In this document: positions 13,230 to 64,000 of the stretch, piece by piece
Layout of the letters: every line of letters starts with the position of its first letter
Position numbering within the stretch: the first letter of the stretch is position 1
Source: Gemmatimonadales bacterium
GTDB lineage: Bacteria > Gemmatimonadota > Gemmatimonadetes > Gemmatimonadales > GWC2-71-9
Direction: 5' to 3'
Length of the DNA stretch: 64,000 bases
Assembly: GCA_035691925.1 (NCBI GenBank)
Contig: DASSIL010000178.1
Span: 31,638-95,637, forward strand
The notes under the pieces: model-generated
Told to the model about the DNA's origin: nothing
Database searches by the model: none
Seen by the model: the letters and a program-made list of their open reading frames with translations, nothing else
Made by a program: the position numbers and the translations under genes

Positions 13230-14033
13230 GTGAGACAGCGCGACCGGATGTCGATCGTTCCCGCCCTTCCCCTGCTCATCGTGATGGCCACGCTGGCGCC
13301 GTGGCGCGCGACGCCGCACGCGTCCCAGACCCGCATGCCCATGCCCATGAGCGAGGCCGCGATGAAGCAGCGCGCGGATCGCTGGTGGGCGACCCATCCT
13401 CGTGTCGGGAAGCAATCCAGCGCAGCGGCGACCGTCACGGTCAACGTCGTGAACTATCAGTTCAACGCGGACGGCAATCCCTTGACCCCCGTCGACACGG
13501 TGAAGATCCACGTCGGCGATACGGTGATGTGGCAGTGGGTGCAGGGAACCCATACCGTCACCAATGGCACCGGCAGCCTCGATCCATCGTCGGGCACGAT
13601 CTTCAACGTCCCGATGGACTCGACGGACCCCACGTTCTCGTACGAGTTCGGCACCCCCGGACTCTACCCGTACTACTGCGTCATCCACGAAGGCACGATG
13701 GCGGGCTACGTCCAGGTTCAGACGGCGGCCGGGGTCGGGCCCGCGCCCGGTGCCAGGCTCGGGTTCACCCGCGATCCCCATCCCAATCCCGCCCGGCGGG
13801 GCGTGAGCTTTTCCTTCGGCCTGCCCCGCGCGGAACGGGCGCGGGTGGAGGTGTTCGATGCCGATGGCCGGCGCGTCGCAATCCCGATCGACCTCGAGCT
13901 CGGCGCCGGCGCTCACGATGGAGCGTGGGATGGACGCCGTGCCGACGGCGGATTCGCCCGCGCGGGGATCTACTACCTGCGGCTCACCCTGCCGGGATGC
14001 CGGGAGAGCCGGCGCGTGACGCTGACGCGGTGA
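13230..14033 (+). CDS. Exported cupredoxin (type-1 blue-copper-like) fused to FlgD/T9SS-type-A-like C-terminal domain
   Basis: GTG 13230 is preceded by GGAGA (alternative ATG 13248). Candidate Cu ligands are H in QGTHTV and C/H/M in YYCVIHEGTMAGY. The C-terminus reads NPARRGVSFSFGLP..VEVFDADGRRV..GIYYLRL..VTLTR. Confidence 0.8.
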   Translation: MRQRDRMSIVPALPLLIVMATLAPWRATPHASQTRMPMPMSEAAMKQRADRWWATHPRVGKQSSAAATVTVNVVNYQFNADGNPLTPVDTVKIHVGDTVMWQWVQGTHTVTNGTGSLDPSSGTIFNVPMDSTDPTFSYEFGTPGLYPYYCVIHEGTMAGYVQVQTAAGVGPAPGARLGFTRDPHPNPARRGVSFSFGLPRAERARVEVFDADGRRVAIPIDLELGAGAHDGAWDGRRADGGFARAGIYYLRLTLPGCRESRRVTLTR

Positions 14034-19266: not shown

Positions 19267-19352
19267 GAGGCGGGCTCCTTGATTTCCGCGAACACCGCGG
19301 GGGCGCGAAGGCGAGGCCGACGACGTGACGGGCGCGTAAGCGGGGCGCCGAA

Positions 19353-22109: not shown

Positions 22110-22271
22110 CGGTGTGGCTCCTACGCTGTTGTTCGAGGGGTGCGGCCGCGGCGAGAGCATGAGGAATGTCCGCCGGGCGGGTTCACGGCCGGGCAATGGT
22201 GCACCATCGGAAGGCGCCTGCGTTACAGCTTTCTTCGTCCGCCAACGCTGAACGTACGTGGATACTTGCAC

Positions 22272-28282: not shown

Positions 28283-30745
28283 CTACTTCAGCCGGAGCAC
28301 GTGGGCGGTGAGGTCCAGCGCGCCGGCGCGCACGCGGGCGAAGTAGAGCCCGGGCGCCACCGGGCGACCGGACGCGTCGCGACCGTCCCAGCTCATGCGC
28401 CGGTCGCCGGCCGCGAAGTCGCCGCGCGCCAGCACCCGCACGCGACGGCCCGCGAGATCGTAGATCGCGACCTCCCCCGCAGCGGCGGCCGGCATGCGGA
28501 AGCGCAAACTGGCCGCACCACGCGACGGATTGGGCGCGATCTCGAGCTGCGCGATCGGCGCGCGGGTCACGGGCGCGACGCCGGCCGTGCCGTCCGTGAA
28601 CACTGCCACGTGCGCGAATGGCCGGTTGCCAATCGTGGTGAACACGCCACCGACCGACACCAGCCCCCCGCCGGCCGTGAGCGCGTCCACGGTCCCGGGG
28701 GCGTTCGCATCCCACGCGGTGGCGGCACCCGTCCCGGCATTCAGCGCGGCCACGCGATTGCGTATCAGGGCGTTGGTCCCGATCGAGGTGAACGTGCCGC
28801 CCACGTAGATCGTGCCGCCATCGGCCGCGATGGTTTTGATCTCGTTGCTGGGATTGGGATTCCATCCGGTCGCGAGGCCGGTCACGAGATCCAGCGCGGA
28901 CAGGTCCTTGCGCGACTGCCCGCCGATGCTCGAATAGATCCCTCCGACATAGAGCAATCCGCCGCTCGCGGCCAGCGCGTTGACGAACGAACCCGCGCCG
29001 CTCAGGTTCGGGTTCCAGGGCAGCACGGCTCCGCTGGAAGCGTCGATCGCGGCCAGCTCGAGTCGAGCCGAATCGCCGACCGCGCTCGTGGGGCCCGGTC
29101 CGATCGTGGTGAACGTTCCCCCCGCGTACATGACGCCGGCGTCGAGTGCCAGCGCGAACACGGCGCTGTTCGTGGCCGGGTGCCACGCGGTCGGAACGCC
29201 AGTGCTCGTGTCGATGGCCGCCAGCCGGTAGCGCGACAGTCCGCCCACGGTCGTGAACCCGCCGCCGATGTACAGCACGCTGCCGCTCTGGACCATCGCG
29301 TGCACATCGGCGCCGATGACGGTCGGATTCCAGGCCGTGGCCGCGCCGGTCACCTGATCGAGCGCCGCCAGATAATTGCGGTGCTGGCCGCCGATGTTCT
29401 GGAACCCTCCTCCTGCATAGACCAGCCCTCCGCTCACCACCAGCGATTCCACGAGATTGTCGGCGCCCGGATTCCAGCTGGTGACGTCGCCGGTGGTGAG
29501 GTCGATGGCGGCGATGTTGTTGCGGACCACGCCACCATTGCTCGTGAACAGGCCGCCGGCGCAGATGGTCGGACCGACGCCGATCGCGTCCACCTCGTCG
29601 TTGGGCTGCGGCGCCCACGGCGTGGCGAGGCCCGTGAGCGTATCGAGCGCCGCCATGTGCAACCGGGCCTGGCCGCCGATCTGGGTGAACTTGCCGCCCG
29701 CGTACATCGTGCCGCCCGCGAGCGCCAGCGCCCGCACGTACCCGTTCGCGTTCGGATTTGGATTCCAGCCCGTGGCGAGCCCGGTCGCGCTGTCGATCGC
29801 GGCCAGGTAGTTCCGCAGCTGCCCGCCGGCCGTGGTGAAGAACCCGCCGGCGTAAACGATCCCGCGCGCGGTCGCGATGGCGTAAACGACACTGTTGGCG
29901 CCAGGGTTCCAGCTCGTCACCGTGCCCGTCGAAGGGTCCGCGGCGGCGATGTAGCTGCGGCCGGTGGCGCCGTTGAGCGTGGTGAACGAGCCGCCCAGAT
30001 AGACGGTTCCGCCGCTCACCGCGATCGAGTAGACGATTCCGTTGGAATTGGGATTCCACGGAAGGACGGCGCCCGTGGTGTCGAACGCGGCCGCGCGGCT
30101 GCGCCCCACGATCCCGGCGCCACTGAACGCGCCCCCCGCATAGATCGTGAGCCCGGGCGCGCTGCTCGCAGCCAGGCAGTAGACCGCGCCGCCGGTGGCC
30201 ACCGGGTTCCACGCCTTCACCACGCCACCCGTGTCCACGGCCGCCAGCCCGTTGCGGGCGATGCCGCTGACCAGCGTGAAGCCGCCGCCCACGTAGATCG
30301 TGGCGCCCAGCTTCAGCAGGGCGTTCACCGGCCCATTGGCGTTGGGATTCCACGCGGTCACCCTGCTGTGCGCGTCCAGGTGGGCAAGGTTGTTGCGGGG
30401 CTGCCCCTGCACGGTGGTGAAGCTCCCCCCGATGTACCAGCCGCCCGCGCCATCGGCGGCCACCGCATTCACGTTGCCCGCCACGGCCGGCCACGGGACC
30501 AGCGCCTCGGCGGTGTACGGGTCGTACAGCAGCGCGCTGCCGGTCGCCGGCCCCACGCGGCTGAAGAACCCGCCGACGTAGAGCGTGTCGGCGTCGCGCG
30601 TCATGCCGTACACGGGTCCATCCGTGATCCAGATGTCGTGCGCCACCTGGGCGATCGCCGATGACGGCAGCGCCGATGCGACGGCGAGTGCGATGAGGGT
30701 GACGAGCCGGTTGGCGGGAGCGATGGTGCGACGCTGGGTGGGCAT
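28283..30745 (-). CDS. Exported multi-blade beta-propeller-like repeat protein (~15 x 47 aa) with FlgD/T9SS-type-A-like C-terminal domain
   Basis: Start re-set to MPTQRRTIAPANRLVTLIALAVASALPSSA (30745). The unit reads V(Y/N)ALxxxGxxxYxGGxFTxxGGQxRNxLAAxDxxTGxxTxWNPxxN. The C-terminus reads APNPSRGAASLRFRMP..IYDLAGRRVRVL..GLYFARV..VLRLK. Confidence 0.85.
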   Translation of the reverse strand: MPTQRRTIAPANRLVTLIALAVASALPSSAIAQVAHDIWITDGPVYGMTRDADTLYVGGFFSRVGPATGSALLYDPYTAEALVPWPAVAGNVNAVAADGAGGWYIGGSFTTVQGQPRNNLAHLDAHSRVTAWNPNANGPVNALLKLGATIYVGGGFTLVSGIARNGLAAVDTGGVVKAWNPVATGGAVYCLAASSAPGLTIYAGGAFSGAGIVGRSRAAAFDTTGAVLPWNPNSNGIVYSIAVSGGTVYLGGSFTTLNGATGRSYIAAADPSTGTVTSWNPGANSVVYAIATARGIVYAGGFFTTAGGQLRNYLAAIDSATGLATGWNPNPNANGYVRALALAGGTMYAGGKFTQIGGQARLHMAALDTLTGLATPWAPQPNDEVDAIGVGPTICAGGLFTSNGGVVRNNIAAIDLTTGDVTSWNPGADNLVESLVVSGGLVYAGGGFQNIGGQHRNYLAALDQVTGAATAWNPTVIGADVHAMVQSGSVLYIGGGFTTVGGLSRYRLAAIDTSTGVPTAWHPATNSAVFALALDAGVMYAGGTFTTIGPGPTSAVGDSARLELAAIDASSGAVLPWNPNLSGAGSFVNALAASGGLLYVGGIYSSIGGQSRKDLSALDLVTGLATGWNPNPSNEIKTIAADGGTIYVGGTFTSIGTNALIRNRVAALNAGTGAATAWDANAPGTVDALTAGGGLVSVGGVFTTIGNRPFAHVAVFTDGTAGVAPVTRAPIAQLEIAPNPSRGAASLRFRMPAAAAGEVAIYDLAGRRVRVLARGDFAAGDRRMSWDGRDASGRPVAPGLYFARVRAGALDLTAHVLRLK
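28550..30628 (-). repeat. About 15 tandem ~47-aa protein repeats; approximate bounds
   Basis: YxGGxFT...RNxLAAxD...WNP recurs periodically in the translation of CDS 28283..30745. Confidence 0.7.
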
Positions 30746-30882
30746 GGCCGGAGCCCTCGAAGGGGAGGAGGTGCGAGTCCCGTGGCCCGATGAGGGTAGC
30801 CGAGCCCTGCCCGCACGGCACCCGGTTTCGGCGCCGGGGGCAGAACGGCCTGTCGCTGTCCGGCGGGCGCCCGCGCGCCGGA

Positions 30883-31494
30883 TCACGCGGCGCGCGATGA
30901 CCCGCGCTGGACTCCCCATCCCAGCCAGCACCAGCCCGTCCCCAGCACGGCGTTGCCCGCGATCGCTCCCCATCTCCCGAACGCGGCGCCGAGCGGCGGG
31001 ATCGCGCACAGGCCGGCGATCACGAGCCAGGCGGCGGGCCGTGGCAGGACGTGGGCGCGCAGGGTGGCGAACGCGAGCCCCAGCCAGCCGAGCGTGAAGG
31101 TGGCGAGCGCGATCATGGCGCCGAGATCGTCACGATGCAGCCCACGACCGTCCTCCAGCGCGTTCAGCGCATCGGGGGCCCGCCGGGCGAGGTCGGTGAT
31201 CACGAACACTTCGTTCCATTCCGTCGCCAGCAGCAGGGCGCTGCCCAGCAGCGCGAGCGCGAACGTGACGGCGCCGAACCGTCCCGAGCGCCCAGCTTGC
31301 GCCAGGTGGACCCCGACCGCGCCCAGCAGCAGGCATGCTGCCGCCGCGGCCGAGGCGCCCTGCCGCCACAGGAACACCCACGACGACGCGCTGTGCGCGA
31401 ACGGAACGTGGGCCGGCAGCAGCGGCGTCAAGGTGATGTTGACGAGGATGGTGAGCGCGCCGCCGCAGGCGAGCGCGACACCGGTCCAGCGCAT
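30883..31494 (-). CDS. Integral membrane protein, unknown function
   Basis: 203-aa ORF with about 6 hydrophobic helices (..GALTILVNITLTPLL.., ..AAACLLLGAVGVHL.., ..ALALLGSALLLATEW..). Confidence 0.65.
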   Translation of the reverse strand: MRWTGVALACGGALTILVNITLTPLLPAHVPFAHSASSWVFLWRQGASAAAAACLLLGAVGVHLAQAGRSGRFGAVTFALALLGSALLLATEWNEVFVITDLARRAPDALNALEDGRGLHRDDLGAMIALATFTLGWLGLAFATLRAHVLPRPAAWLVIAGLCAIPPLGAAFGRWGAIAGNAVLGTGWCWLGWGVQRGSSRAA

Positions 31495-43572: not shown

Positions 43573-44883
43573 TCACCCCGCCCTGCGCGCGACGTCGGCC
43601 ATCAGCCGCGCGATCGTGCGCAGGTTGGATTCGCGATTCTCGGGCGTGCCGATCGCCTGCGCGGCCGCGCGCGCCCGCGCGAGCGCACGTCGCGCCGCGG
43701 CCGGCTGCTTCATGCCGAGCCACGCCCGCGCCTCCAGCTCGCACAGCCACGTGCGCACGATCGGGCCGCGCGCCCTGCGCAGCCCGCGTGCGCACGCCGC
43801 CCGCGCGTCGGGGTAACGTTCGGCCGCGAGCTCGGCCTGCGCCAGCCGCACCGCAGCGACGTCGCTGCCGGGCATGGCGCGCTCGGAGGCGGCGAGCGCC
43901 GGGATCACGCGCTCGGCCGAGCGGCGATCCCACACCATCTCGATGCGCGCGATGTCGAGCGCCGTGCGCTCGTCCTGGCTGCGCGGCGTGATGCGATCGA
44001 TCTCGTCGAGGGCGCGGGTCCCCCACCCGGCGACCTCGAGCGTGTCGCCGCGCAGCTGGGCGCTGCCCATCAGCACGCCATACAGCAGGAACCGATCGTC
44101 GCGGCGGATGTCGGTGCGGCCCAGGGCCTCCGCCGCGAGCGGAGCGAGGGTGCGTCGCGCCGCCAGAGCCGCGTCGCCAGAATCCCGGTTGGCGCACGCG
44201 AGCCCCGCGTACACCACGCGCGCGAACCGCTGGCCGCGCGCCATCCGCGGCGCCTCGGCCACCGCGGTCGAAGCGCACGCCCGCCACTCGCCCGCCGACG
44301 TCAGCGCCCACGCGAGCTGCGACAGCGCAGTCTCGCGCTCTCGCCAGTCGGGGCTCGCCGCCGCCAGCGCGGCGCGGTACGCCGACGCCGCATCGGTCAC
44401 CCGGCCGACGCCGAGCAGCGCGTCTCCGCGCGCCAGCAGCGAATCGGCCGCCGAGCCACCGGCGCGCGCATAGCCGCGCGCGCCCTGGTCCAGGAACTCC
44501 AGCAGCTCACCCGCGGGCATGCCCCCGAAGTGACACGCCAGCGCGCGCTCGTCCGCGGGATCGAGCACGAACAGGCTGGGCGTGAATCTCACCCGATGGC
44601 GCGCGAAGAACTGCCTGTTGGCGGGACGGTCGAAGTTCAGCTCGAGCCAGACGAACCGTCCGGCCTGCCTCGCGAGGGTGGGATCGGCCAGCGTCACCCG
44701 CATGAGGCGACACGACGATCACCACGGCGCCCACACGTCCACGAACATCGGCACGTGCCGGGCCTTCGCTTCGGCGCGCGCCCGCGCCACGTCGTCGGAG
44801 ATGAACGGCAACGGTCCCGGCATGGCCGAGACGACGGCGGGCGGCACGAGGCCGATGAGCAGCATCAGGGCGCGGAGCTTCAT
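43573..44883 (-). CDS. Exported thioredoxin-fold + TPR-like helical-repeat protein with in-frame TGA at the redox motif (candidate selenoprotein, W-U-S-S-C) or recently inactivated gene
   Basis: ATG 44883 is preceded by GGGAGA, and the signal is MKLRALMLLIGLVPPAVVSA. The sequence ..ARHVPMFVDVWAPW is followed by TGA (44721-44719) and then SSCRLM, continuous in frame with track ORF 43573..44703 (RVTLADP..FVWLELNFD..FTPSLFVLDP). The upstream 54 codons are missing from the track because they are too short to be listed. Confidence 0.6.
44687..44716 (-). promoter_or_regulatory. Candidate SECIS-like hairpin immediately 3' of the in-frame UGA
   Basis: mRNA nt +6 to +35 from the U of UGA read GUC-GUGUCGCC-[UCAUGCG]-GGUGACGC-U(bulge)-GGC. 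That gives 11 bp (including G-U pairs), one bulged U and a 7-nt apical loop containing G residues at +21/+23. Confidence 0.35.
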
Positions 44884-45013
44884 CTGGGATCTCCCTGGGT
44901 CTGGCGGACAGTCGAATGCGGCCGCGAATCGAATCCGGCTGGAACGCTAGTGGCGATTCGGTATGATTTCCAGAGCCGATCAGGGCCAGACAATCGGACC
45001 ATTGGAGACCCGC

Positions 45014-46465
45014 ATGCGAAGATCGCGTGGAGCCCTGCTGCCACCCGTTCCGGACCAGCGCGTGCGCGGCCGCAGCCTGTATCGCACGCTGCGCGACGCG
45101 CTGCTCGCGGGGGCACTCGCGCCCGGAGAGCGGCTGCCCTCCTCCCGACAGGCCGCCGCCGACTACCGCGTGTCGCGCGGCATGGTCGAGCAAGTGTACG
45201 GCCAGCTCGGCGAGGAGGGCTTCCTCGAGCGCGGGATCGGCCGCGGCACGTTCGTCGCGGCGCCCGCCGCCCGGCCGGGCGTGGCCGGCATGGCGCCGGC
45301 AGCGGAGCGCCGCCTCGCGCCCGGACGCCGTGGCCGCCGGCTGGCCGCGAGCGCGGCATGTCGCGAGCCCGAGCGCCCGCGCGCGTTCGACGCCGGCGTC
45401 GCCGACACGCGCGAGTTCCCGTGGCGCACGTGGCTGCGGCTCCAGTCGCGCGCCTGTCGCACGCTGGCGGGCGAGGCGATGAACCTGGCCGACCCGCGCG
45501 GCGTGCCGGCGCTGCGCACTGCCATTGCCCGACACCTGGCCGGCGCGCGCGGGATTCGGTGCCAGCCGGGTCAGGTGGTGGTGTTCAGCAGCTCCCAGCA
45601 GGCGCTGCTGGCCGCCACGCTGCTGCTGCTCGAGCGCGGCGACGGGGTGTGGCTCGAGGACCCATGCTATCCGGGCGCGCGCGCGGCGCTGGAGCTGGCT
45701 GGCGCCGCGATCGCGCCGATCCCGGTGGACGCGCACGGCCTGCGCGTGGAGGTCGGGCTGCGGGTCGCGCCGCGCGCGCGGCTCGCCTACGTCACGCCAT
45801 CGCATCAGTATCCGACCGGCGCGATGTTGAGTCTCGAGCGGCGGAGGGCGCTGCTGGCGTGGGCGAACCGGCGCGGCGCGTGGATCGTGGAGGACGACTA
45901 CGACGGCGAGTTCCGCTACGCCGGACAGCCGCTGACGCCGCTCGTGGCGCTCGATCCGGATGCGCGCGTCATCTACCTCGGCACGTTCAGCAAGGCCACG
46001 TTCGTGTCGCTGCGGCTGGCGTACCTGGTGCTCCCCGAGCCGCTGGTCGAGCCGCTCGCCAACCTGCGCACCCAGCTCGACGGTTTCACGCCCGCGATTC
46101 CGCAGCTCACCATGAGCGCGTTCATGGACGACGGCCACTTCGCGCCGCACCTGCGACGCATGCGGGCCATCTACGGCGAGAAGCACGCGCAGCTCGTGGC
46201 CGGACTCCGGCCGCTCGCCCAGCGGGGCTGGAGCTGGTCACCCAACCCGGCCGGCCTTCACCTGCTGGTGCGCCACCCTTCGGCGGAACTCGTGCGCCGG
46301 GTCGTCGCCACCTCGGGGCTGGCGCTGGCGCGGTTGAGCGCCTATCGACTGCGCCCCGCCCGCGACGACGGGCTGCTGCTGCGCTACGGCGGATTGGACC
46401 TCGAGGACGTGTGCGCCGGGGCCGCCCAGCTCGCGCACGCCGTGGCCCGGGCCACGGACCCCTGA
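45014..46465 (+). CDS. MocR/GabR/PdxR-type regulator (GntR HTH fused to aminotransferase class I/II-like domain)
   Basis: Start re-set to MRRSRGALL. The HTH reads LYRTLRDALLAGALAPGERLPSSRQAAADYRVSRGMVEQVYGQLGEEGFL. The AAT-like domain reads TPSHQYPTG and YLGTFSKAT (PLP-Lys context). It is divergent from the thioredoxin-fold gene. Confidence 0.85.
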   Translation: MRRSRGALLPPVPDQRVRGRSLYRTLRDALLAGALAPGERLPSSRQAAADYRVSRGMVEQVYGQLGEEGFLERGIGRGTFVAAPAARPGVAGMAPAAERRLAPGRRGRRLAASAACREPERPRAFDAGVADTREFPWRTWLRLQSRACRTLAGEAMNLADPRGVPALRTAIARHLAGARGIRCQPGQVVVFSSSQQALLAATLLLLERGDGVWLEDPCYPGARAALELAGAAIAPIPVDAHGLRVEVGLRVAPRARLAYVTPSHQYPTGAMLSLERRRALLAWANRRGAWIVEDDYDGEFRYAGQPLTPLVALDPDARVIYLGTFSKATFVSLRLAYLVLPEPLVEPLANLRTQLDGFTPAIPQLTMSAFMDDGHFAPHLRRMRAIYGEKHAQLVAGLRPLAQRGWSWSPNPAGLHLLVRHPSAELVRRVVATSGLALARLSAYRLRPARDDGLLLRYGGLDLEDVCAGAAQLAHAVARATDP

Positions 46466-46636: not shown

Positions 46637-49075
46637 ATGCGTCCCCCGCGCCTGCTCGCCTCGATGGCCGTTCCCGCGCTGCTGTGCCTCGCGTCCGTCG
46701 CGCACGCCGCCTGGCCCTACGACCCGACAGTCAATCTGCAGCTCTGCAATGCCGGCAACGAGCAGCGCAACCCCGCCGCGATCTCCGACGGCGCCGGCGG
46801 GGCGATCGTCGTGTGGGAGGATCAGCGGCTGAACGCGAACATCAACATCTTCGCGCAGCGCATCTCGGCCGGCGGGGCTCCGCTGTGGGGCAACCTGGCG
46901 GCCGGCCTCGCGGTGTGCAACGCGACGGGCACCCAACAGCAGCCGGTGATCTGCAGCGATGGCTCGGGCGGCGCGATCGTCGCGTGGGCCGACGACCGTT
47001 CCGGCACCTGGGCGCTGTACGCGCAGCGCATCAGCGCCGCTGGGAGCGCGCAATGGGCGGCGAACGGCGTGTCGATCTCGAGCACGTTGACCGCGCCCAG
47101 CTTCGGGTCCCTCGACTACAACATCGCGACCGACACGCAGGGCGGCGCGTATCTGGCGTGGACGACATCCGCCAACGAATTCCGAATTCAGCGCGTGAAC
47201 GGCTCGGGCACGGCGCTGTTCGCCGCCGGCGGCGTGCTGCTCGACAACACGCACCAGTTCCCGAACGACGTCGGCATCGTTCCCGACGGCTTCGGCGGCG
47301 CGATCGCGTGCTGGTCCGGTTTCTCGGGCTCCTACGACATCCTGGCGCAGCGGGTCAACGCCTCGGGCACGGCGTTGTGGGCGTTCGGCGGCGTGGGCGT
47401 GTGCACCGACCCCGGCAGCCAGCAGGGTCCGCTGCTGGCCTCCGACGGCCAGGGCGGCGCGATCTTCGCGTGGACCGACTCGCGCGCGGTGCCGCCCAAG
47501 GCGTTCGCGCAGCACATCGGTCCGGGCGGCGCCGCGCTATGGACCGGCAACGGCATCCCGATCGAGAGCTCGACGTACAACACGACGCCGCTCGCCATGG
47601 TGGGCGACGGCACGGGCGGCGCGATCGTTGCGTTCGACCAGACCGACATCAACGCCTCGACCACCTCCCTCTACGCGCAGCGCATCAACGATTCGGGGTT
47701 GGTCCAGTGGGGCAGCCTGGGCGAACAGGTGGTGGCGCCCTCGCAGTACCAGAGCAACGGAGAGCTGATCTCCGATGGCGCCGGCGGGGCCGTCCTGGCG
47801 TGGATGGACCGACGCAACGGGAGCTTCGACATCTACGCGCAGCGCCTCAACCCGTCCGGCGGCTTCCTGTGGAGCTTCGACGACGTCGCCGTGTGCACTC
47901 AGCCCGCGGGCCAGAGCCTGCCCGAGGAGGACGGCATGGCTCCCACGCTGGCCCCCGATGGCGGCGGCGGCGCGATCGTGGCGTGGGAGGACTCGCGCAA
48001 CGATGCCGGCGACATCTACGCCCAGCGCGTCGAGCGCTTCGGCCGGCTCGGCAATCCCGAGCCCGTCATCACCAAGGCGAGCGACGTGCTCGCCGACCAG
48101 GGTGGCGAGGTGTCGCTGCAGTGGACGGCCAGCTACCTGGACGTGTCGCCGACGTTCGAGATCGCAGACTATTCGATCTGGCGCGAGGCGCCGGCCGCGG
48201 CCGCACAGGCCGCGCTGCGCTCGGGCGCGCGGCTGCTCGGAGCCGGGGATCCCCGGCCTCGCGACGCGGCGGGCGCCCACCTGATCCGCGCGCTGCCCGG
48301 CGCGAGCGGCACGAGTTACTGGGAGTATCTGGTCTCGGTCCCGGCCCGCGCGCTGCCCGGATACAGCCACGTCACGCCCACCACCACCGACTCCACCGGG
48401 ACCTCGAACCTGCTCACCAGCTTCATGGTCATGGCCGAGGACAACGGCGGGATCCCGTTCTGGGCCTCCGCTCCCGACTCGGGCTACTCGGTGGACAACC
48501 TGCCGCCCGTGGCGCCGGCGCCATTCACGGGCGCTTACCTCGCAGGGGCCACCCATCTGCATTGGGGCGCCAACATGGAACCCGATCTGGCGGGTTACCG
48601 CCTGTACCGGGGCACGACGTCGGGATTCCTGCCCGGCCCCGGCAACCTGATCTCCTCGCAGCCCGACACGGGCTACGCGGACGCCGGCCCGGCCGGCAGC
48701 TACTACAAGCTCTCGGCGGTGGACGTTCATGGCAACGAGAGCGCCTATTCGCTGCTCTCGCCGGCGGCCACGCTGGACGCGGTGCGCGAGGCGCCGCACG
48801 CGCTGACGCTCGCCGCGCCATCTCCCAATCCCGCCCGTGGACACACCGTGATGGCGTTCGGCCTGCCCACGGCCGGAGCCGTTCAGCTCTCCGTGTACGA
48901 CGTGGATGGCCGCCTGGTGCGCACGCTCGTCAGCGGATGGCTCGACGCGGGCCAGTTCTCGATGCCGTTCGACCTGCGGGACGACGCCGGGAGCGCGTTG
49001 CCGGGTGGGCTCTACTTCGCACGCCTGCGGGGCGAGGGACGCACGCTCGTGCGCCGGTTCGCCATCGCGAGATAG
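46637..49075 (+). CDS. Exported 8x-repeat protein (same repeat as 3851..5506) with Ig-like/FN3-like/FlgD-like C-terminal cassette
   Basis: 812 aa, with signal MRPPRLLASMAVPALLCLASVAHA. It carries 8 units such as ISDGAGGAIVVWEDQR..NIFAQRI and ISDGAGGAVLAWMDRRNGSFDIYAQRL. The C-terminal 339 aa are collinear with the cassette of the two NHL proteins and end GGLYFARL..RRFAIAR. Confidence 0.9.
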   Translation: MRPPRLLASMAVPALLCLASVAHAAWPYDPTVNLQLCNAGNEQRNPAAISDGAGGAIVVWEDQRLNANINIFAQRISAGGAPLWGNLAAGLAVCNATGTQQQPVICSDGSGGAIVAWADDRSGTWALYAQRISAAGSAQWAANGVSISSTLTAPSFGSLDYNIATDTQGGAYLAWTTSANEFRIQRVNGSGTALFAAGGVLLDNTHQFPNDVGIVPDGFGGAIACWSGFSGSYDILAQRVNASGTALWAFGGVGVCTDPGSQQGPLLASDGQGGAIFAWTDSRAVPPKAFAQHIGPGGAALWTGNGIPIESSTYNTTPLAMVGDGTGGAIVAFDQTDINASTTSLYAQRINDSGLVQWGSLGEQVVAPSQYQSNGELISDGAGGAVLAWMDRRNGSFDIYAQRLNPSGGFLWSFDDVAVCTQPAGQSLPEEDGMAPTLAPDGGGGAIVAWEDSRNDAGDIYAQRVERFGRLGNPEPVITKASDVLADQGGEVSLQWTASYLDVSPTFEIADYSIWREAPAAAAQAALRSGARLLGAGDPRPRDAAGAHLIRALPGASGTSYWEYLVSVPARALPGYSHVTPTTTDSTGTSNLLTSFMVMAEDNGGIPFWASAPDSGYSVDNLPPVAPAPFTGAYLAGATHLHWGANMEPDLAGYRLYRGTTSGFLPGPGNLISSQPDTGYADAGPAGSYYKLSAVDVHGNESAYSLLSPAATLDAVREAPHALTLAAPSPNPARGHTVMAFGLPTAGAVQLSVYDVDGRLVRTLVSGWLDAGQFSMPFDLRDDAGSALPGGLYFARLRGEGRTLVRRFAIAR
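46748..48055 (+). repeat. Array of 8 protein-level repeats (~52 aa); approximate bounds
   Basis: SDGxGGAI(V/F)AW.D.R....(I/L)(Y/F)AQR(I/V/L)...G...W recurs periodically. Confidence 0.75.
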
Positions 49076-49264
49076 GCTCCCGCCACGGTTCGCATTCATT
49101 CGTCCGCGACGACGACCCCCGTTCCTCGCTGGTAGCCGTCGGGAGCGTCGTTCGTCGGCTTGGCAGAAATCGTGGCCTTGTTGTCATGGGCATTCGACCC
49201 CGAGCACCACAATGTGTGGCGGATGGAGGTCATCGCCGCTGCTCGCCTGCGATCGGGGGACCCG

Positions 49265-49789
49265 ATGGACTGGAAATCGAAGCTTCACCGGCGGACGCGC
49301 CTCGCCTCGTTGGTGGCCATGTCTGCTTCGCTGGTGCTCCTGACGGCGGCCCATCGGAACGACGCCGGGCCTGGCGGCAGAATGGCCGACGGGTCCTCGG
49401 CCGGCGCCGATCGGGTCACCATCTCGGATCCGTGGGCTCGGGAGACGCCGGCGGGCGCCCACATGGGATCGGTCTATCTGACGATCGTCAGCGCGGCAGG
49501 CGATCGCCTGCTGCGGGCGTCCGTCCCGCGCTCGGTGGCCGCGCGTACGCAGATCCACGAGACCATCGTGCGGCAGCAGGCTGACGGCGGTGGAGAGTCG
49601 ATGACGATGCGGCGGGTCCCGTTCCTCGAGCTGCCGCCGGGACAGGAGGTCGAGCTCGAGCCGGGTGGGTTTCACCTGATGTTGATCGATCTCAGGCGTC
49701 CCCTGAAGGCTGGCGACAAGCTGGCCGTCACGCTGCGATTCGAGAAGGCCGGCACGCGCACCGTGACGGCCGACGTCCGTGGTCTGTGA
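49265..49789 (+). CDS. Copper chaperone PCu(A)C (DUF461)
   Basis: Start re-set to MDWKSKLHRRTRLASLVAMSASLVLL. It reads ISDPWARETPAGAHMGSVYLTI...IHET...MRRV..LELPPGQEVELEPGGFHLMLIDLRRPLKAGDKLAVTLRFEKAG, with the H..M and HxM-type Cu(I) motifs of the family. Confidence 0.85.
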   Translation: MDWKSKLHRRTRLASLVAMSASLVLLTAAHRNDAGPGGRMADGSSAGADRVTISDPWARETPAGAHMGSVYLTIVSAAGDRLLRASVPRSVAARTQIHETIVRQQADGGGESMTMRRVPFLELPPGQEVELEPGGFHLMLIDLRRPLKAGDKLAVTLRFEKAGTRTVTADVRGL

Positions 49790-49802
49790 CCACCCCGCGG
49801 GC

Positions 49803-50450
49803 ATGGCGACAGGGCCGGCCCGAACGTGTGCCCGGGTGGGGGCTGACGCCCGGCTCGCCGTCATCCTCGTCTCGCTGTGGTGGGTCGCGGGTTGCGGGCG
49901 GGGCGCAGCGCACGTCCCGCTCGGCGGACGGGTTCCGGGATCCGCCGCGCCCGTGGGAGGGCTCGTGCTGCCCGAGGTTCGCGCCGATCGCAGTGGCGTG
50001 CCGTTCCGGCTGCGGCCGTCACCCGGACAGCTGCTGATCGTCTACTTCGGATACACGACGTGCCCGGACGTTTGCCCGACGACGCTCGGCGACCTGCATC
50101 GCGCACTCTCCCGGCTGGGAGGCGACGCGCGTCACGTGGAGGTCGCGTTCATCACCGTGGACCCGGACCGGGATACGCCCGACGTTCTCGCCCCGTACCT
50201 CGCCGGTTTCGTCGCCGATGGCCATCCGCTGCGTCCGGCGAGCCCGTCCCAGTTGGCGGCGGCCGAACATGCGTTCGGGGCGACGTCGTCGGTGACCCGC
50301 AATCCAGACGGCGAGATCGAGGTGAGCCACAGCGGCACGATGTACGTCGTGGACGACCGTGGCAGGATCGTGGACGAATGGCCGTTCGGCAGCACGGCCA
50401 GCCTCATGGCCCACGATCTGCGGATCCTGCTCCCCGCTTCGCAACGCTGA
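49803..50450 (+). CDS. SCO1/SenC family copper chaperone / thiol-disulfide oxidoreductase (lipoprotein-like)
   Basis: The CxxxC motif is in YFGYTTCPDVCPTTL, with the conserved downstream H in VSHSGTMYVVD. The N-terminus has a lipobox-like LWWVAGC. The alternative GTG 49779 overlaps the PCuAC gene. Confidence 0.85.
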   Translation: MATGPARTCARVGADARLAVILVSLWWVAGCGRGAAHVPLGGRVPGSAAPVGGLVLPEVRADRSGVPFRLRPSPGQLLIVYFGYTTCPDVCPTTLGDLHRALSRLGGDARHVEVAFITVDPDRDTPDVLAPYLAGFVADGHPLRPASPSQLAAAEHAFGATSSVTRNPDGEIEVSHSGTMYVVDDRGRIVDEWPFGSTASLMAHDLRILLPASQR

Positions 50451-54241: not shown

Positions 54242-55384
54242 TCACGGCGTCGCGGACGCCTCCTCGGCCACCACCTGCGGCAGGTCGGAGGGCTCCGTCA
54301 CCAGCCGCCCGTTGACGAGGAACGTGGGCGTGCCGGTGACCCCGGCCGCGATTCCTTCGCGGATGTCCTGGTCCACCTTCCGGTCGGGATCGGCCGACGA
54401 TTGGCACGCCACGAACGTCGCGCGGTCGATGCCGACCTGCTCCGCCCAGCCCGCGAAATCCGGATGCGCCAGGTCGCCCTGGTGCGCGAACAGCAGGTCG
54501 TGGTACGCGGCGTAGCGTCCCAGCGTCGCCGCGCACATCGAGGCCACCGCCGCCGGCCGCGCGTACTTGTGCGTCGGCAGCGGGTAGTTGAGATAGAACA
54601 GCGCGAGCTTGTCGCCGTACTGCCGCCGCAGCTGCGCCAGCGTCATTTCGGCCTCGAGGCAGTACGGGCACTCGAAGTCGGTGAACACCACGATCCGGAT
54701 CGGCGCGTTGGGAGGTCCCACCACCGGCGCGCCGGCGGTCGACACCACCACGCGCGGCGGGGAGAGCCGCGACTGGAACCCGGCGCGCGCCCGCACGGAG
54801 TCGATCACCGCCGCGCGCGCCTGGGCGATGCGCGCGCTGCGGATCGCGGCTTCGATGCGCTGCTCGCCGGGCGGCACGGTGGCGGTCGCCTCCTGCTTGC
54901 CCGCCTCGTACGCCTTGATGAATTCGATGTCGTGCGGCGTGACGGGCGCCGTGCGGGCCGTGAGCGCGCGCGTCAGCTGCTCCGGCGACATGCCGCGCGC
55001 GCGGGCGGCGGCTTCGAACATCTGGTTCTCGACCATGCCGTCCAGCGCGGCGCGCTCCATCTCGTACACCTGCTCGCGCTGCTGGTGGATGCGGTTGCGG
55101 AGGTTGGGATCGAACTTGTCGAGATCGCTCGCCACCGACCGCGCATAGATGGAATCCGCCGGCACGTGCTGCGCCACCGCCTCGCGCTCCACCGCCTTGC
55201 GGCCCAGCAGATCGCGCACGGCCGCGTGCTCGGCATCCTGCAGGTCCGCGAGCGCGTCGTGGTACGCCTGCCGCTGATTCTCGTTCAGGGCGCGCTCCAG
55301 ATCGGCGCGCGTGATCGGCTTTCCATTGATCGTCGCGACGACCTCGGCCGCCACCGCCGCCGCAACTGCCACGAGCACGAACAT
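54242..55384 (-). CDS. Membrane-anchored DsbA-family thiol:disulfide oxidoreductase with SurA-N-like chaperone region
   Basis: ATG 55384 is preceded by GGGAGA (the track starts one codon earlier at GTG). The N-terminal TM reads FVLVAVAAAVAA. The CPYC active site is in VVFTDFECPYCLEAE, followed by GVTGTPTFLVNG. Confidence 0.85.
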   Translation of the reverse strand: MFVLVAVAAAVAAEVVATINGKPITRADLERALNENQRQAYHDALADLQDAEHAAVRDLLGRKAVEREAVAQHVPADSIYARSVASDLDKFDPNLRNRIHQQREQVYEMERAALDGMVENQMFEAAARARGMSPEQLTRALTARTAPVTPHDIEFIKAYEAGKQEATATVPPGEQRIEAAIRSARIAQARAAVIDSVRARAGFQSRLSPPRVVVSTAGAPVVGPPNAPIRIVVFTDFECPYCLEAEMTLAQLRRQYGDKLALFYLNYPLPTHKYARPAAVASMCAATLGRYAAYHDLLFAHQGDLAHPDFAGWAEQVGIDRATFVACQSSADPDRKVDQDIREGIAAGVTGTPTFLVNGRLVTEPSDLPQVVAEEASATP

Positions 55385-55452
55385 CACACTCTCCCGAAAA
55401 TGAACGAGGGCGGCTCACGGGCCGCCCTCGCTGGATCCAGAGTGAACGACCG

Positions 55453-60196: not shown

Positions 60197-60241
60197 GGAC
60201 CCTCCTTGGGATGATCCCGCCGCGCGCAGCCGCGGTCGGGC

Positions 60242-60266
60242 GTCCGATGCGACAACTGTATCGGAC
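60242..60266. promoter_or_regulatory. Inverted repeat in the ClC / MarR divergent intergenic region
   Basis: GTCCGAT-N11-ATCGGAC is a perfect 7-bp inverted repeat 18 nt upstream of the MarR ATG (60284), next to an AT-rich TTCGATATATTTCG patch. Confidence 0.4.
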
Positions 60267-60283
60267 TTCGATATATTTCGCAC

Positions 60284-60724
60284 ATGGCCACCCGCACCGC
60301 TCCGTCCGCCGCCGCGCCCGATCTCACCGACGCCGAATACGCCGCGCTGGCCGGATTCCGTGCGCGGCTGCGCTCGTTCCTGCGTTTCACCGAGCGCGAA
60401 GCCGCGCGCGGCGGGCTCACGCCGCAACAGCACCAGCTGCTGCTCGCGATCCGCGCGCATGCCGGCGGCGCGGCGGGCGTCGGCGAGCTGGCGCAGGCGC
60501 TGCAGCTCCGCCATCACACGGTGGTGGGCCTCGTGGACCGCGTCGCCGCGCTCGGGTTCGTCACGCGCCGGGTGGACCCGGCCGATCGCCGGCGCGTGCG
60601 CGTGACCCTCACGCGCGCCGGCCGGCAGGCGCTGGCCCGGCTGTCGCTCGGGCACCGCCGCGAGCTGCACGCGCTGCGCCGCGCGCTCGATCTGGCGCTG
60701 CTGGACGGCCCACGCCGGAGCTGA
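60284..60724 (+). CDS. MarR family transcriptional regulator
   Basis: It reads LTPQQHQLLLAIRAH..GVGELAQALQLRHHTVVGLVDRVAALGFVTRRVDPADRRRVRVTLTRAG. Confidence 0.85.
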   Translation: MATRTAPSAAAPDLTDAEYAALAGFRARLRSFLRFTEREAARGGLTPQQHQLLLAIRAHAGGAAGVGELAQALQLRHHTVVGLVDRVAALGFVTRRVDPADRRRVRVTLTRAGRQALARLSLGHRRELHALRRALDLALLDGPRRS

Positions 60725-60787
60725 CGGCCGAGGCCAGCGGGGGACCGCCGCCCGGGTTTGCGAATCCGGTATCATCACCCCTTCGCG

Positions 60788-63700
60788 ATGCCCCTCTCCC
60801 ATTTCCATCCGGAGGTCGCGCGCTGGTTCCGGGAGCGCGTCGGCGAGCCGTCGGCCCCACAGGCCGAGGGCTGGCCGCGCATCCGCTCCGGCCACCACAC
60901 GCTGATCGCGGCACCGACCGGCACCGGCAAGACGCTGGCGGCGTTCCTGTGGGCGATCGACGGCCTGCTGCGCCAGGGCGCAGCACTCCCCGACGAGACG
61001 CAGGTGCTGTACGTGTCGCCGCTGCGCGCGCTCGGCAACGACGTGCACAAGAACCTGCAGGGTCCGCTGGCCGAGCTCGAGCGGCGCGACCCGACGTTCC
61101 CGCACGTCCGCGTGCAGGTGCGCAGCGGCGACACTCCGGGCCGCGAGCGCACGGCGATGCGCAAGCGCCCGCCGCACATCCTCGTCACCACGCCCGAATC
61201 GCTCGCGATCCTGCTCACCACCGAAGGCGGCCGCGCGATGCTCGCGACCGTGCGCACCGTGATCGTGGACGAGATCCATTCGGTGGCGGGCAGCAAGCGC
61301 GGCGCGCACCTGGCGCTGTCGCTCGAGCGGCTCGAGGCGCTGGTCGAGACCCACGGCCTCTCCCGCGGCCGCCGCGCGGCGCTGCAGCGGATCGGATTGT
61401 CGGCCACGCAGAAGCCGATCGAGGACGTCGGCCACCTGCTGGTGGGCGTGGATCGCGCATGCGAACGCGTCGACGTCGGGCACCGTCGCGATCTGGACCT
61501 CGCGATCGAGCTGCCCGACGGGCCGCTCGAGACCGTGTGCTCGCACGAGACGTGGGAGACGATCGTCAAGCGCATGGCGGAGCTGATCCGTGCGCACCGC
61601 ACCACGCTGGTGTTCGTCAACACCCGCAAGCTCGCCGAGCGCGTGGCGGCGCGGCTGACGGACGCGCTCGGGCCCGAGCACGTGACGAGCCATCATGGCA
61701 GCCTGTCGCGCGAGCGGCGGCTGGACGCCGAGGCCCGGCTCAAGGCCGGCACGCTGCGCGCGCTGGTCGCCACCTCTTCGCTCGAACTGGGCATCGACAT
61801 CGGCGACGTGGACCTCGTGATCCAGGCCGGCGTCACCGCCTCGATCGCCACGCTGCTGCAGCGCGTCGGCCGCAGCGGCCACGCGCTGGCGCGCACGCCG
61901 CGGGGCCGCATCTTCCCGCTCACCGAGGACGACCTCGTCACCGCCACGGCGCTGGTGGACGCGATCCGGCGCGGCGAGCTGGATCGCACGCCGCAGCCCG
62001 GGCAGCCACTCGACATCCTGATGCAGCAGGCGGTGTCCGCGTGCGTGCCCGAGACCTGGGACGAGGGACGGCTGTACGACACGTTCCGGCGCGCGTGGCC
62101 GTATCGCGCGCTCACGCGCGAGGCGTTCGACGGCGCGCTGGCGCTGCTGACCGAGGGCCGGCACGCGCTGCTGCATCGGGACGGCGTGCACGGCCGGCTG
62201 CGCGCGACCAAGCGCGCGCGCATCACCGCGCTCACCGCCGGCGGCGCCATTCCCGACACCGGCCAGTACCGCGTCGAGCTCGAGCCCGACGGCACGCTGG
62301 TCGGCATGCTGGACGAGGACTTCGCGGTCGAATCGAACGGCGGCGACATCTTCCAGCTCGGGAACGCCTCGTGGCGCATCCTGCGCGTCGAGCCCGGGGT
62401 GGTGCGCGTCGCCGACGCGAAAGGCGCGCCGCCGTCGGTGCCGTTCTGGTTCGGCGAGGCCCCGGCGCGCACGAGCGAGCTGTCGGGCGCGATCGCGCGC
62501 ATCCGGGAGCGCGGCCGCGACCGCGACTGGCTGATGCGCGAGGTCGGGCTGTCCGAGGCCGCTGCCACGCAGCTGTCGGAATACCTGCGCGAGGGCGAGC
62601 GCACGCTGGGCGCGATCCCCACTCCCGCGCGCATCGTGCTCGAGCGGTTCTTCGACGAATCCGGCGGCATGCAGCTCGTGGTGCACGCGCCGCTCGGCGG
62701 CCGCATCAATCGCGCGTGGGGGCTCGCGCTGCGCAAGCGGTTCTGCGTCGGGTTCGGGTTCGAGCTGCAGGCGGCGGCCAACGAGGAGGCGATCGTCATC
62801 TCGCTCGGGCCCCAGCACAGCTTCCCGCTGGCGGACGTGTTCGGGTTCCTGAAGCCCGAGAGCGCGCGCGACGTGCTGGTGCAGGCGGTGTTGGGCGCAC
62901 CGATGTTCGGCACGCGCTGGCGCTGGAACGTGACGCGCGCGCTGCTGCTGCCGCGCACGCAGCACGGCGGCCGCCGGGTGCCGACGCCGCTGCTGCGCAT
63001 GCGCGCCGAGGACCTGCTGGTGCGCGCGTTCCCGCAGGTGCTGGCGTGCCCTGAGACGCTGCCGCCGGGCGAGCTGCCGGTGCCGTGGGAACACCCGATG
63101 GTGCGCCAGACGCTGGAGGACTGCCTGACCGAGGCGATGGACGTCGACGGCTTCCTCGCCGTGCTGCGCGACCTGCGCGCCGGGCACATCGAGACGGTGG
63201 CGGTGGACAACGCCACGCCGTCGCGGTTCGCGCAGGGCATCCTGAACGCGATGCCGTACGCGTTCCTCGACGACGCGCCGCTCGAGGAGCGCCGCACGCA
63301 GGCGGTGATGTCGCGCCGCGGGCTCGACGCCAAGGTCGCCGACACGCTGGGGGCGCTCGATCCCGACGCGGTGGCGCGCGTGCGCGACGAGGCGTGGCCG
63401 GAGCCCGAGAACGCCGAGGAGCTGCACGAGGCGCTGCTGTGGATGGGCTACGCCACCGCGCGCGAGGCGGAGGCGTGCGGCTGGCGCGCGGCGCTGGCCG
63501 AGCTGGCCGCCGCGGGCCGCGTGTCGCTCGAGCCGGGCGACGAGGGCGGGCACTGGATGGCGGCCGAGAGCCCGCGCGATCGCGCGAGCGTGGTGCGCGG
63601 GCGGCTCGAGGCGCTGGGTCCGGTGGTGGTGGCGGACGCGTCGGATCGCATGCCCCCGGCGGGCGACCCGGCCCTCGCGGCGCTCGCCACGATGGCCGCG

Positions 63701-64000
63701 GACGAGCTGCCCGCGCTGCTCGAGCTCGAGGCGCGCGGGTTCGTGCTGCGCTGCCGGATCGCGGGGCGCGATGCATGGTGCGAGCGCCGGCTGCTGGCGC
63801 GCATCCACCGCTACACGCTCGAGCGCCTGCGGCGCGAGATCGAGCCCGCCACCGCCGCCGAGCTGTGGCGGTCCATCGCGTGCTGGCAGCACGCCGATCC
63901 CGCGTTCCGGCTGGACGGCCCGCGCGGGGTGCACGAGATCGCGCGCAAGCTGGCGGGGTTCGAGATCCCGGCAGCGGAATGGGAGCAGGGCGTGCTGCGC
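60788..64000 (+). CDS. lhr: Lhr-type large ATP-dependent DEAH-box helicase, 3' end beyond window
   Basis: Own translation; absent from the track because it has no stop in the window. MPLSHFHPEVARWF.. is followed by Walker A AAPTGTGKT, DEIH box VIVDEIHSV, SAT (GLSATQ), HHGSLS and QRVGRSGH. The downstream region is collinear with the Lhr core. It is open to base 64000 in frame. Confidence 0.9.
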   Translation, partial: MPLSHFHPEVARWFRERVGEPSAPQAEGWPRIRSGHHTLIAAPTGTGKTLAAFLWAIDGLLRQGAALPDETQVLYVSPLRALGNDVHKNLQGPLAELERRDPTFPHVRVQVRSGDTPGRERTAMRKRPPHILVTTPESLAILLTTEGGRAMLATVRTVIVDEIHSVAGSKRGAHLALSLERLEALVETHGLSRGRRAALQRIGLSATQKPIEDVGHLLVGVDRACERVDVGHRRDLDLAIELPDGPLETVCSHETWETIVKRMAELIRAHRTTLVFVNTRKLAERVAARLTDALGPEHVTSHHGSLSRERRLDAEARLKAGTLRALVATSSLELGIDIGDVDLVIQAGVTASIATLLQRVGRSGHALARTPRGRIFPLTEDDLVTATALVDAIRRGELDRTPQPGQPLDILMQQAVSACVPETWDEGRLYDTFRRAWPYRALTREAFDGALALLTEGRHALLHRDGVHGRLRATKRARITALTAGGAIPDTGQYRVELEPDGTLVGMLDEDFAVESNGGDIFQLGNASWRILRVEPGVVRVADAKGAPPSVPFWFGEAPARTSELSGAIARIRERGRDRDWLMREVGLSEAAATQLSEYLREGERTLGAIPTPARIVLERFFDESGGMQLVVHAPLGGRINRAWGLALRKRFCVGFGFELQAAANEEAIVISLGPQHSFPLADVFGFLKPESARDVLVQAVLGAPMFGTRWRWNVTRALLLPRTQHGGRRVPTPLLRMRAEDLLVRAFPQVLACPETLPPGELPVPWEHPMVRQTLEDCLTEAMDVDGFLAVLRDLRAGHIETVAVDNATPSRFAQGILNAMPYAFLDDAPLEERRTQAVMSRRGLDAKVADTLGALDPDAVARVRDEAWPEPENAEELHEALLWMGYATAREAEACGWRAALAELAAAGRVSLEPGDEGGHWMAAESPRDRASVVRGRLEALGPVVVADASDRMPPAGDPALAALATMAADELPALLELEARGFVLRCRIAGRDAWCERRLLARIHRYTLERLRREIEPATAAELWRSIACWQHADPAFRLDGPRGVHEIARKLAGFEIPAAEWEQGVLR

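Follow-up and report, generated by a model that had tools for sequence, protein, structure and literature searches.

Among the described selenoproteins with a thioredoxin fold, the closest to the protein discussed here belong to a predicted family named 'thiol:disulfide interchange protein', which carries the Thioredoxin_2 domain (PF13098) and a UxxC motif, U being selenocysteine (Sec) (PMC13188914 Table 1; PMC12013277 Data S1, supplement file 3). Its members include WP_011366075.1 and a 439-amino-acid (aa) protein from candidate division LCP-89 (PMC13188914, PMC12013277). The sole Thioredoxin_7-type selenoprotein in the 2026 inventory is the Trx7/PDZ (seleno)protein NF041199. Here we describe a gene in a stretch of 64,000 nucleotides (nt) from a Gemmatimonadales bacterium (contig DASSIL010000178.1; the whole stretch is called the window). 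This gene very probably encodes one full-length, exported selenoprotein that joins a thioredoxin domain to tetratricopeptide repeats (TPR) and in which an in-frame UGA is read as Sec.

The reading frame lies on the minus strand and runs from ATG 44883-44881 to the stop TGA 43575-43573, which gives 436 codons plus the stop and a single internal TGA at 44721-44719. Its translation starts as MKLRALMLLIGLVPPAVVSA...VDVWAPW, reaches the internal TGA, and goes on beyond it, with the frame unchanged, as SSCRLMRVTLADPTLARQAGRFVWLELNFD.... Sec at codon 55 would give the product a W-U-S-S-C motif. An earlier note, made from the letters of the window, had placed this TGA in frame between a part with signal peptide and strand beta1 and a part that begins with SSC, and our re-reading of the frame, of ATG 44883 and of the GGGAGA spacing agrees with it. 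The features of the gene are listed below.

43573..44883, minus strand: complete predicted selenoprotein coding sequence, based on the frame, Pfam and homologues that are collinear on both sides of the TGA
44890..44895, minus strand: Shine-Dalgarno-like GGGAGA, located 6 nt upstream of the ATG, seen in the sequence itself
44824..44883, minus strand: putative signal peptide MKLRALMLLIGLVPPAVVSA with a basic n-region, a hydrophobic core and a VSA cleavage-type end, judged by eye from the sequence with no predictor
44719..44721, minus strand: in-frame UGA, predicted to encode Sec at the first (nucleophilic) position of U-S-S-C, based on TGA conservation and the Cys alignment
44485..44796, minus strand: Thioredoxin_7 / DsbD-gamma-like fold, ~aa 30-133, with UxxC and the T-P cis-proline of an F-T-P-S motif, based on Pfam, AlphaFold2 (AF2) and Foldseek
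43576..44466, minus strand: C-terminal all-alpha TPR-like superhelix, ~aa 140-436, based on weak Pfam TPR matches, AF2 and Foldseek

When Cys is placed at the TGA, the product matches Pfam Thioredoxin_7 (PF13899) with 37.2 bits against a cut-off of 27 (E 3.4e-9, residues 30-109), in line with the thioredoxin-fold layout that had been recognized by inspection. The TPR-like repeats that had been seen after it are recovered as weak Pfam TPR matches in the C-terminal two thirds of the product, and as a superhelix in the structure model of a Cys homologue that is discussed below. The public annotation begins at Met 44703, as the earlier note had anticipated for a standard gene call. It is found in the database as record P0001, a protein of 376 aa named 'hypothetical protein VFI79_10000 [Gemmatimonadales bacterium]'.

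An internal TGA could mean that UGA has been reassigned to Trp or Gly throughout the genome (genetic codes 4 and 25), although the in-frame TGA itself is all that points this way. By a composition-based reading, ~21 of the 29 likely genes of the window end in TGA, and these include all four examples that had been cited for its use as an ordinary stop (36836, 43572, 49789 and 57601). TGA thus serves as the stop in roughly two thirds of these genes, in places consistent with the Pfam domains they encode, which argues that the code is standard. Moreover, nowhere else in the window does a gene require an in-frame TGA. Global reassignment can be given practically no weight.

Homologues are numerous, and most have been annotated in the same truncated manner. 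A protein search returned about forty close homologues (42-86% identity), all of which start just after the TGA residue and cover at most 86% of the query, together with more distant matches of 425-500 aa that have complete thioredoxin domains. Proteins that all begin at the equivalent of Met 44703 would seem to contradict the full-length product, but the contradiction is only apparent: the DNA upstream of them holds the signal peptide, beta1 and the TGA. Gene callers report this upstream piece in homologous loci as an open reading frame of its own (51-54 aa). In three orthologues (50-57% identity), such a separately called frame stops at a TGA located 15 nt ahead of the called start, and continuous reading gives ...VWAPW-TGA-[YF]SCRLMR....

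A scan of loci, with one genome taken per species, yielded 75 loci. These come from Acidobacteriota (Terriglobia, Thermoanaerobaculia and Vicinamibacteria), Candidatus Eisenbacteria, Methylomirabilota, Myxococcota (Archangium, Hyalangium and Anaeromyxobacteraceae) and others; homologues are also present in Gemmatimonadota, the phylum of the window gene. The site codon is TGA in 71 of the 74 readable loci (the window counted) and TGC in the remaining three. A later scan was aimed at Cys forms, whose DNA was taken from metagenomes as a control; after it, there were 65 unique TGA sequences and 45 unique TGC/TGT sequences. Cys forms read WAPWC[HA][TSP]C, and the protein alignment places the TGA column at the first Cys of this motif. 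The check that the earlier note had proposed for this column thus speaks for Sec, with TGA in the Sec forms and Cys (as WCHTC) in the Cys forms. Two subfamilies of Sec forms can be distinguished: subfamily 1, which includes the window gene, reads U-[YFS][ST]C-RLMR, and subfamily 2 reads U-H[TS]C-RSMR.

The same picture emerges from 242 family proteins taken from two independent protein libraries. More than half of them (129) start 10-16 residues before the GRFVW motif and are, to judge from this start point, proteins cut at the Sec codon. CxxC is present in 60 of the 242, as CHTC in 47 of those. Among the retrieved proteins, Sec forms relate to Cys forms as ~2:1. Within the genus Archangium, TGA species (L035, L039, L042 and L043) and a TGC species (L033) stand side by side. 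In one close relative (L081, 461-1822; protein P0002), the normal stop has been lost and the call extends 77 residues further, into the antisense of a convergent NHL-repeat gene; either a genuine mutation or a fault of the assembly may lie behind this.

The distribution of the TGA bears on the possibility that a recent nonsense mutation, a pseudogene or a sequencing or assembly error has struck a Cys-type thioredoxin gene. A single base change from TGC or TGT would suffice, the source is a metagenome-assembled genome, and no Sec machinery is visible in the window. However, the codon is shared by nearly all readable loci across phyla, and it is retained in two relatives from other samples with 85-86% protein identity. 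A Logan assembly of run SRR25158202, made independently, matches the window sequence without any difference across 401 nt, TGA included, and no decay is seen on either side of the codon. The window sequence itself also carries the RNA elements specific to TGA forms that are described below. We consider mutation or error extremely improbable.

Substitution patterns indicate that the codons upstream of the UGA are translated. In the 30 codons 5' of the UGA, the 65 unique TGA sequences differ pairwise by a mean of 0.28 at codon position 1, 0.20 at position 2 and 0.47 at position 3, and not one of the 65 contains a stop there. By this measure, the 30 codons before the UGA evolve as coding sequence. 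In the two relatives with 85-86% identity, the upstream 54 codons differ from the window gene by 6 synonymous and 6 nonsynonymous changes in one case and by 2 and 6 in the other. Within the 90 nt around the UGA, these relatives show no more than 1-2 substitutions, whereas ~24-29% of codons differ gene-wide.

A coding region on each side of a TGA could also represent two genes, namely a 54-aa secreted peptide with a genuine TGA stop and a 376-aa cytoplasmic TPR protein that starts at Met 44703. All gene callers produce this split, and in most members a Met is located 5 codons past the TGA. Yet the split would sever the thioredoxin fold between beta1 and the active-site helix. Without exception, moreover, the pieces share one frame and are separated by 15 nt. 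Conservation of the downstream Met is just as strong in the Cys forms (R-S-M / R-F-M), which need no restart, and this Met is replaced by Leu in L006 and L016; P0008 and P0027 are called from a later Met. In addition, two RNA hairpins (H1 and H2) occur together with the TGA and are missing in the Cys forms. A pair of separate genes is therefore very unlikely, and we return to a single selenoprotein gene in what follows. The two hairpins are located at the following positions.

44664..44711, minus strand: H1, a long hairpin that begins 7 nt after the UGA, based on comparative pairing and covariation
44647..44663, minus strand: H2, a 17-nt hairpin (CCGGACG-GUU-CGUCUGG), based on conservation in TGA forms

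In each of the 65 TGA sequences, one long hairpin is formed by the interval after the UGA (mean energy -26 kcal/mol). H1 consists of a lower stem GUCGCCUC/GAGGC.GGC followed by GCG.GGGUG/CACCC.CGC. In subfamily 1 (alignment A2, 28 sequences), 92.9% of cells are paired between columns 14-26 and 51-62, compared with 23-41% when the partners are slid, and none of 500 shuffles matches the observed pairing or covariation. At pair 21-54 of this alignment, which joins the third positions of Leu and Ala codons, G-C is found 15 times, C-G 6 times and U-A once. For subfamily 2, RNAalifold with default settings returned merely a weak long-range helix in which covariation was absent; the structure was taken from individual folds and then tested. 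H1 is 84% paired in this subfamily, and pair 27-51, again formed by two third positions, occurs as G-C 22 times, as C-G 4 times and as A-U twice. Pairing in the subfamily-2 register reaches 0.85 in TGA forms versus 0.50 in Cys forms (p = 7e-12). The minimum free energy (MFE) fold of 75 nt from the window itself, at -31.6 kcal/mol, includes the H1 helix of the family. A further hairpin located right at the UGA in a single-sequence fold was dropped, as it is not conserved among homologues.

H2 is located directly 3' of H1, within the codons for A-G-R-F-V-W, and is formed by 7 base pairs (bp) and a GUU loop (-8.4 kcal/mol). Its inner 4 bp together with the loop are present in 64 of the 65 unique TGA sequences versus 7 of the 45 TGC/TGT sequences (Fisher p = 3e-21). 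Synonymous sites inside H2 are frozen across phyla: Arg is CGG in 58 of 58 cases, Val is GTC in 65 of 65, and Gly is GGA or GGG, never GGC. Codon choice is free at equally conserved Pro, Asp, Asn and Val residues outside H2. The variation that does occur keeps the pairing, since an A-to-G change opposite U produces a wobble pair, and when R becomes Q (CGG to CAG), TTC has changed to TTT as well in 6 of 7 cases. In the 1.37 Mb of sequence analysed, the motif of H2 is found 84 times, each time at the family site except for two occurrences. H2 would be a clear example of an RNA constraint that fixes an amino-acid motif. For H1 and H2 together, Sec forms have an MFE z score of -2.33 relative to synonymous recoding, and Cys forms one of -0.72 (p = 4e-10).

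The seven Cys forms that keep H2 are L033, L082, L083, L097, L107, L114 and L133, of which at least L033, L082 and L083 are of Myxococcota type. They look like recent Sec-to-Cys conversions in which the RNA element has not yet been lost.

The earlier note had suggested that the stretch 44725..44660 be folded or searched for a bacterial SECIS. Conserved structure is present in the RNA after the UGA; it shows compensatory changes at synonymous sites and is missing from the Cys forms. The single-sequence fold that had been suggested is not significant on its own. The most conserved part of the signal, H2, is located beyond the stretch that had been named. [quoted passage not shown] H2 satisfies the loop, stem and energy rules, and its loop starts with G-U.

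Several observations weigh against the decoding of this UGA as Sec and against the role proposed below for the protein. The genes selA, selB and selD and a tRNA-Sec were not found in the 64-kb window. ARAGORN, and Rfam at gathering thresholds, gave no RNA or tRNA gene in the window, a Pfam scan of ~30 genes of the window gave no sel genes, and tblastn with Escherichia coli SelD and SelB gave no match in the window or in any of the loci. The 81 nt after the UGA of the window, taken alone, fold at -36.4 kcal/mol with z = -0.39 relative to shuffled sequences, and the fold gives z = +0.63 relative to synonymously recoded versions. Such a single-sequence fold is uninformative because the DNA has 70% G+C. 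The H2 loop lies 62 nt (subfamily 1) or 65 nt (subfamily 2) from the UGA, beyond the 16-37 nt of the bSECIS model. H1 is at the model distance, but the apical loop rules hold for only 26 of the 65 sequences, and its loop is not conserved. Finally, Sec at the UGA and the full-length product are deduced throughout the family from sequence, and the biochemical role and the client from fold and architecture.

Evidence for Sec machinery in the family comes from one of its members. On L057, a 563-kb Acidobacteriota contig, a tRNA-Sec gene is located 8 kb downstream of the family gene (19312-19408). It is reported by ARAGORN and by Rfam (RF01852, 71.1 bits against a cut-off of 47). Its neighbours are TonB, ExbD, an M28 peptidase, a prepilin peptidase and DUF72, and not selA or selB. 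Acidobacteriota are among the Sec-using test organisms in PMC12013277. In the literature, nothing specific was found on a thioredoxin-TPR selenoprotein or on Sec use in Gemmatimonadota.

Read-through can be stimulated by a strong hairpin located shortly downstream of a stop codon. It is conceivable that the hairpins cause the UGA to be decoded by a near-cognate tRNA (for Trp, Cys or Arg) in a programmed manner that requires neither selenium nor SelB. The spacing of H2, which departs from the canonical SECIS model, the strong downstream hairpin and the lack of Sec genes in the window would be in keeping with such a mechanism. Against it stands the identity of the recoded site, which is the catalytic Cys of a CxxC motif with Cys homologues, the classical Sec/Cys signature. 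Furthermore, the G-U loop and the stem of H2 are typical of SelB-binding hairpins, a tRNA-Sec is encoded on the contig of one member, and the phyla of the family include documented Sec users. Selenium-independent read-through is accordingly unlikely, though somewhat less so than the other alternatives considered here, and insertion of Sec continues to be the preferred explanation.

How H2 could act at its distance from the UGA is a separate question. Because H2 fits the model in all respects but distance and the loop of H1 fits it in only a minority of sequences, we tentatively propose, at less than even odds, that the element is a two-part SECIS of a kind not described before, in which H2 binds SelB and the covarying H1 is a folded spacer. 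When H1 is folded, the unpaired nucleotides between the UGA and H2 total 7, 9 or 11 in 59 of the 65 sequences. The fdhF mRNA of E. coli needs an 11-nt spacing, and the loop of its SECIS is GGUC. Closure of H1 would leave ~7-11 unpaired nucleotides and would thereby bring the effective spacing close to that of fdhF. The loop of H2 with its closing pair opened is GGUUC, which resembles GGUC. Both hairpins are located within the coding region, immediately 3' of the UGA, as in canonical bSECIS elements. The difference is that a hairpin of ~-26 kcal/mol, H1, sits here between the UGA and H2.

If this proposal is true, then current search rules for SECIS elements (16-37 nt) systematically miss the two-part class, and the A-G-R-F-V-W motif of strand beta2 is set by the RNA and not by the needs of the protein. 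A UGA strictly tied to a hairpin 62-65 nt downstream, behind a spacer hairpin, would provide a clean, testable exception to the distance rule on which programs for SECIS prediction rely.

The architecture of the protein was examined with an AF2 model built on the Cys-form homologue P0051 from Myxococcus landrumensis, and not on the window protein. The model has a pLDDT of 93.6 and a pTM of 0.89 and consists of a thioredoxin fold followed by an uninterrupted TPR-like superhelix (helices 156-454). The top Foldseek matches for its TPR part are CTPR designed proteins, LGN and the OGT TPR domain. All homologues with available upstream DNA have a hydrophobic N-terminus comparable to that of the window protein, and a lipobox (LVAC) replaces the signal peptide in P0051. 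Since members carry signal peptides or a lipobox, the protein is expected to work outside the cytoplasm.

These features can be combined into a possible mechanism. SelB with Sec-tRNA(Sec) would bind the downstream RNA signal and insert Sec at UGA 44721-44719, and the 436-aa product would be exported by means of its signal peptide. In the periplasm, the DsbD-gamma-like domain would be a selenol/thiol-disulfide oxidoreductase, with reduction or isomerization as its most likely activity. It would join the substrate in a short-lived selenenylsulfide that is then resolved by Cys58, while the TPR superhelix may hold a protein client or partner. Expression in subfamily 1 would probably be under the control of a divergent MocR-type regulator. 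The most economical reading, by analogy, is a periplasmic oxidoreductase with a client-binding TPR part that may follow a CnoX-like logic but is exported.

The divergent regulator and the region between it and the selenoprotein gene have the following coordinates.

44963..46465, plus strand: MocR-type regulator (GntR helix-turn-helix plus class I/II aminotransferase-like domain), divergent, based on Pfam
44971..45002, with the region extending to ~45011, no strand assigned: operator-like repeats ATGGTCCGATT ... ATCGGCTCTGG ... GACCGAT, based on a MAFFT alignment of 18 intergenic regions

A divergent MocR-type neighbour is present in ~20 subfamily-1 loci, at 59-72% identity, and is more conserved than the selenoprotein; none is present in subfamily 2. 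Because tblastn alignments to orthologues begin at residue 16-18, its true start is probably near 45011 and not at ATG 44963. The operator-like repeats between the two genes are conserved from Gemmatimonadales to Acidobacteriota loci and may function as operators. The MocR partner and the shared repeats suggest effector-dependent control, and the conserved partner offers a handle on regulation and on the physiological role of the selenoprotein.

In an Eisenbacteria-like group of subfamily 2, the gene adjoins a housekeeping lptB-rpoN-hprK cluster on the opposite strand (upstream flanks of L045, L047, L058-L060, L063, L066, L068, L070, L074-L076 and L078). This adjacency is synteny by descent, with no obvious functional link. 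Clustering of neighbouring genes was polluted by antisense reading frames of the high-GC DNA.

The window is rich in extracytoplasmic-looking genes. Near the selenoprotein gene are a PCuAC copper chaperone gene that overlaps an SCO1/SenC gene (49160-50447) and a gene for a DsbA-like thioredoxin fused to a SurA_N-like domain (54245-55387); neither set is conserved beside the selenoprotein gene in other loci. Four large proteins end in an FlgD_ig-like domain (3854-5869, 13230-14030, 28286-31009 and 46637-49072), and two adjacent genes at 16483-22271 encode NHL-repeat beta-propellers of ~960-970 aa each. A second candidate selenoprotein was considered at TGA 60722-60724, where the frames 60215-60724 and 60725-64000 abut; no further pair of coding-like frames is joined by a TGA in the window. 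It was rejected: a MarR-like gene ends at this TGA, and a separate Lhr-type helicase follows in frame, starting as MPLSHFHPE....

The consequences for annotation are considerable. At least 129 public sequence clusters have been reduced to 'TPR repeat' or 'hypothetical' proteins that lack the signal peptide and the redox centre. The mis-annotated family is large and soil-wide, and NCBIfam holds no model that could rescue its members. The family also indicates that aerobic lineages abundant in soil, namely Acidobacteriota, Gemmatimonadota, Eisenbacteria and Myxococcota, use selenium in a redox enzyme outside the cytoplasm.

Several known proteins resemble the window family in part. The thioredoxin domain of the P0051 model superimposes on DsbD gamma (1uc7_A) with a TM score of 0.72 and a root-mean-square deviation (rmsd) of 2.8 A over 116 columns, and the two have in common a W-C-x-x-C type centre and a periplasmic location, which for the window family is predicted. 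The likeness is confined to the gamma-like domain and does not extend to the DsbD membrane protein (NCBIfam NF001419, 21.7 bits against a cut-off of 330). In contrast to DsbD, the window protein has Sec in place of Cys and a fused TPR superhelix. E. coli YbbN/CnoX (PDB 3qou) shares the order of an N-terminal thioredoxin fold followed by TPR (Foldseek E 1e-4), and several family members carry the JGI label 'thioredoxin-like negative regulator of GroEL'. However, CnoX is cytoplasmic, whereas the window protein carries a putative signal peptide, and superposition gives a poor fit (TM 0.20, rmsd 25.8 A). Relative to CnoX, the window family has a TPR part about twice as long, and the thioredoxin subtype and the active-site motif differ. 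Membership in the YbbN/CnoX family is ruled out by the signal peptide and the poor superposition, and CnoX is kept as a functional analogy.

The Trx7/PDZ (seleno)protein NF041199 is likewise an exported-type redox protein with a partner-binding domain, but it has Sec in CxxU and a PDZ domain where the window family has UxxC and TPR. Membership was rejected, as the window protein gives no match and the Cys homologue P0051 scores 20.4 bits against a cut-off of 300. NCBIfam release 20 contains no model for the window family; the nearest selenoprotein models, seleno_TsoB and trx7_PDZ_seleno, reach 20-27 bits against cut-offs of 805 and 300. Nor does the 2026 inventory, with its 119 prokaryotic selenoprotein families, have an entry that combines thioredoxin_7, TPR and UxxC.

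The 'thiol:disulfide interchange protein' selenoproteins come closest. Like the window protein, they have Sec first in the UxxC of a thioredoxin fold, and this motif is preceded by the same N-terminal helix and beta1. The 439-aa LCP-89 member shares even the overall plan of signal peptide, thioredoxin domain with UxxC and long TPR-like tail. In hhalign, the family profile matches this member with 89% probability (E 2e-6, 333 columns, 20% identity) and the thioredoxin domain of WP_011366075.1 with 94% probability (E 1.3e-7, 101 columns). Pairwise BLASTP with members of that family is marginal (E 0.002 and 0.009), the identity is only ~20%, and PF13098 scores 23.1 on the window product, under its cut-off of 27, whereas PF13899 passes. 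The motif WAPWU[YSH][ST]C was found in none of the sequences listed by the paper that catalogues the family. Judged from these sequence comparisons, the window family is a remote relative of the 'thiol:disulfide interchange protein' selenoproteins and not a clear member. In view of the marginal BLAST results, the sub-threshold PF13098 score and the remote profile match, we therefore classify the gene, at the level of sequence, as a new, uncatalogued family or deep subfamily of thioredoxin-fold UxxC selenoproteins, a kind of protein that is itself not new.

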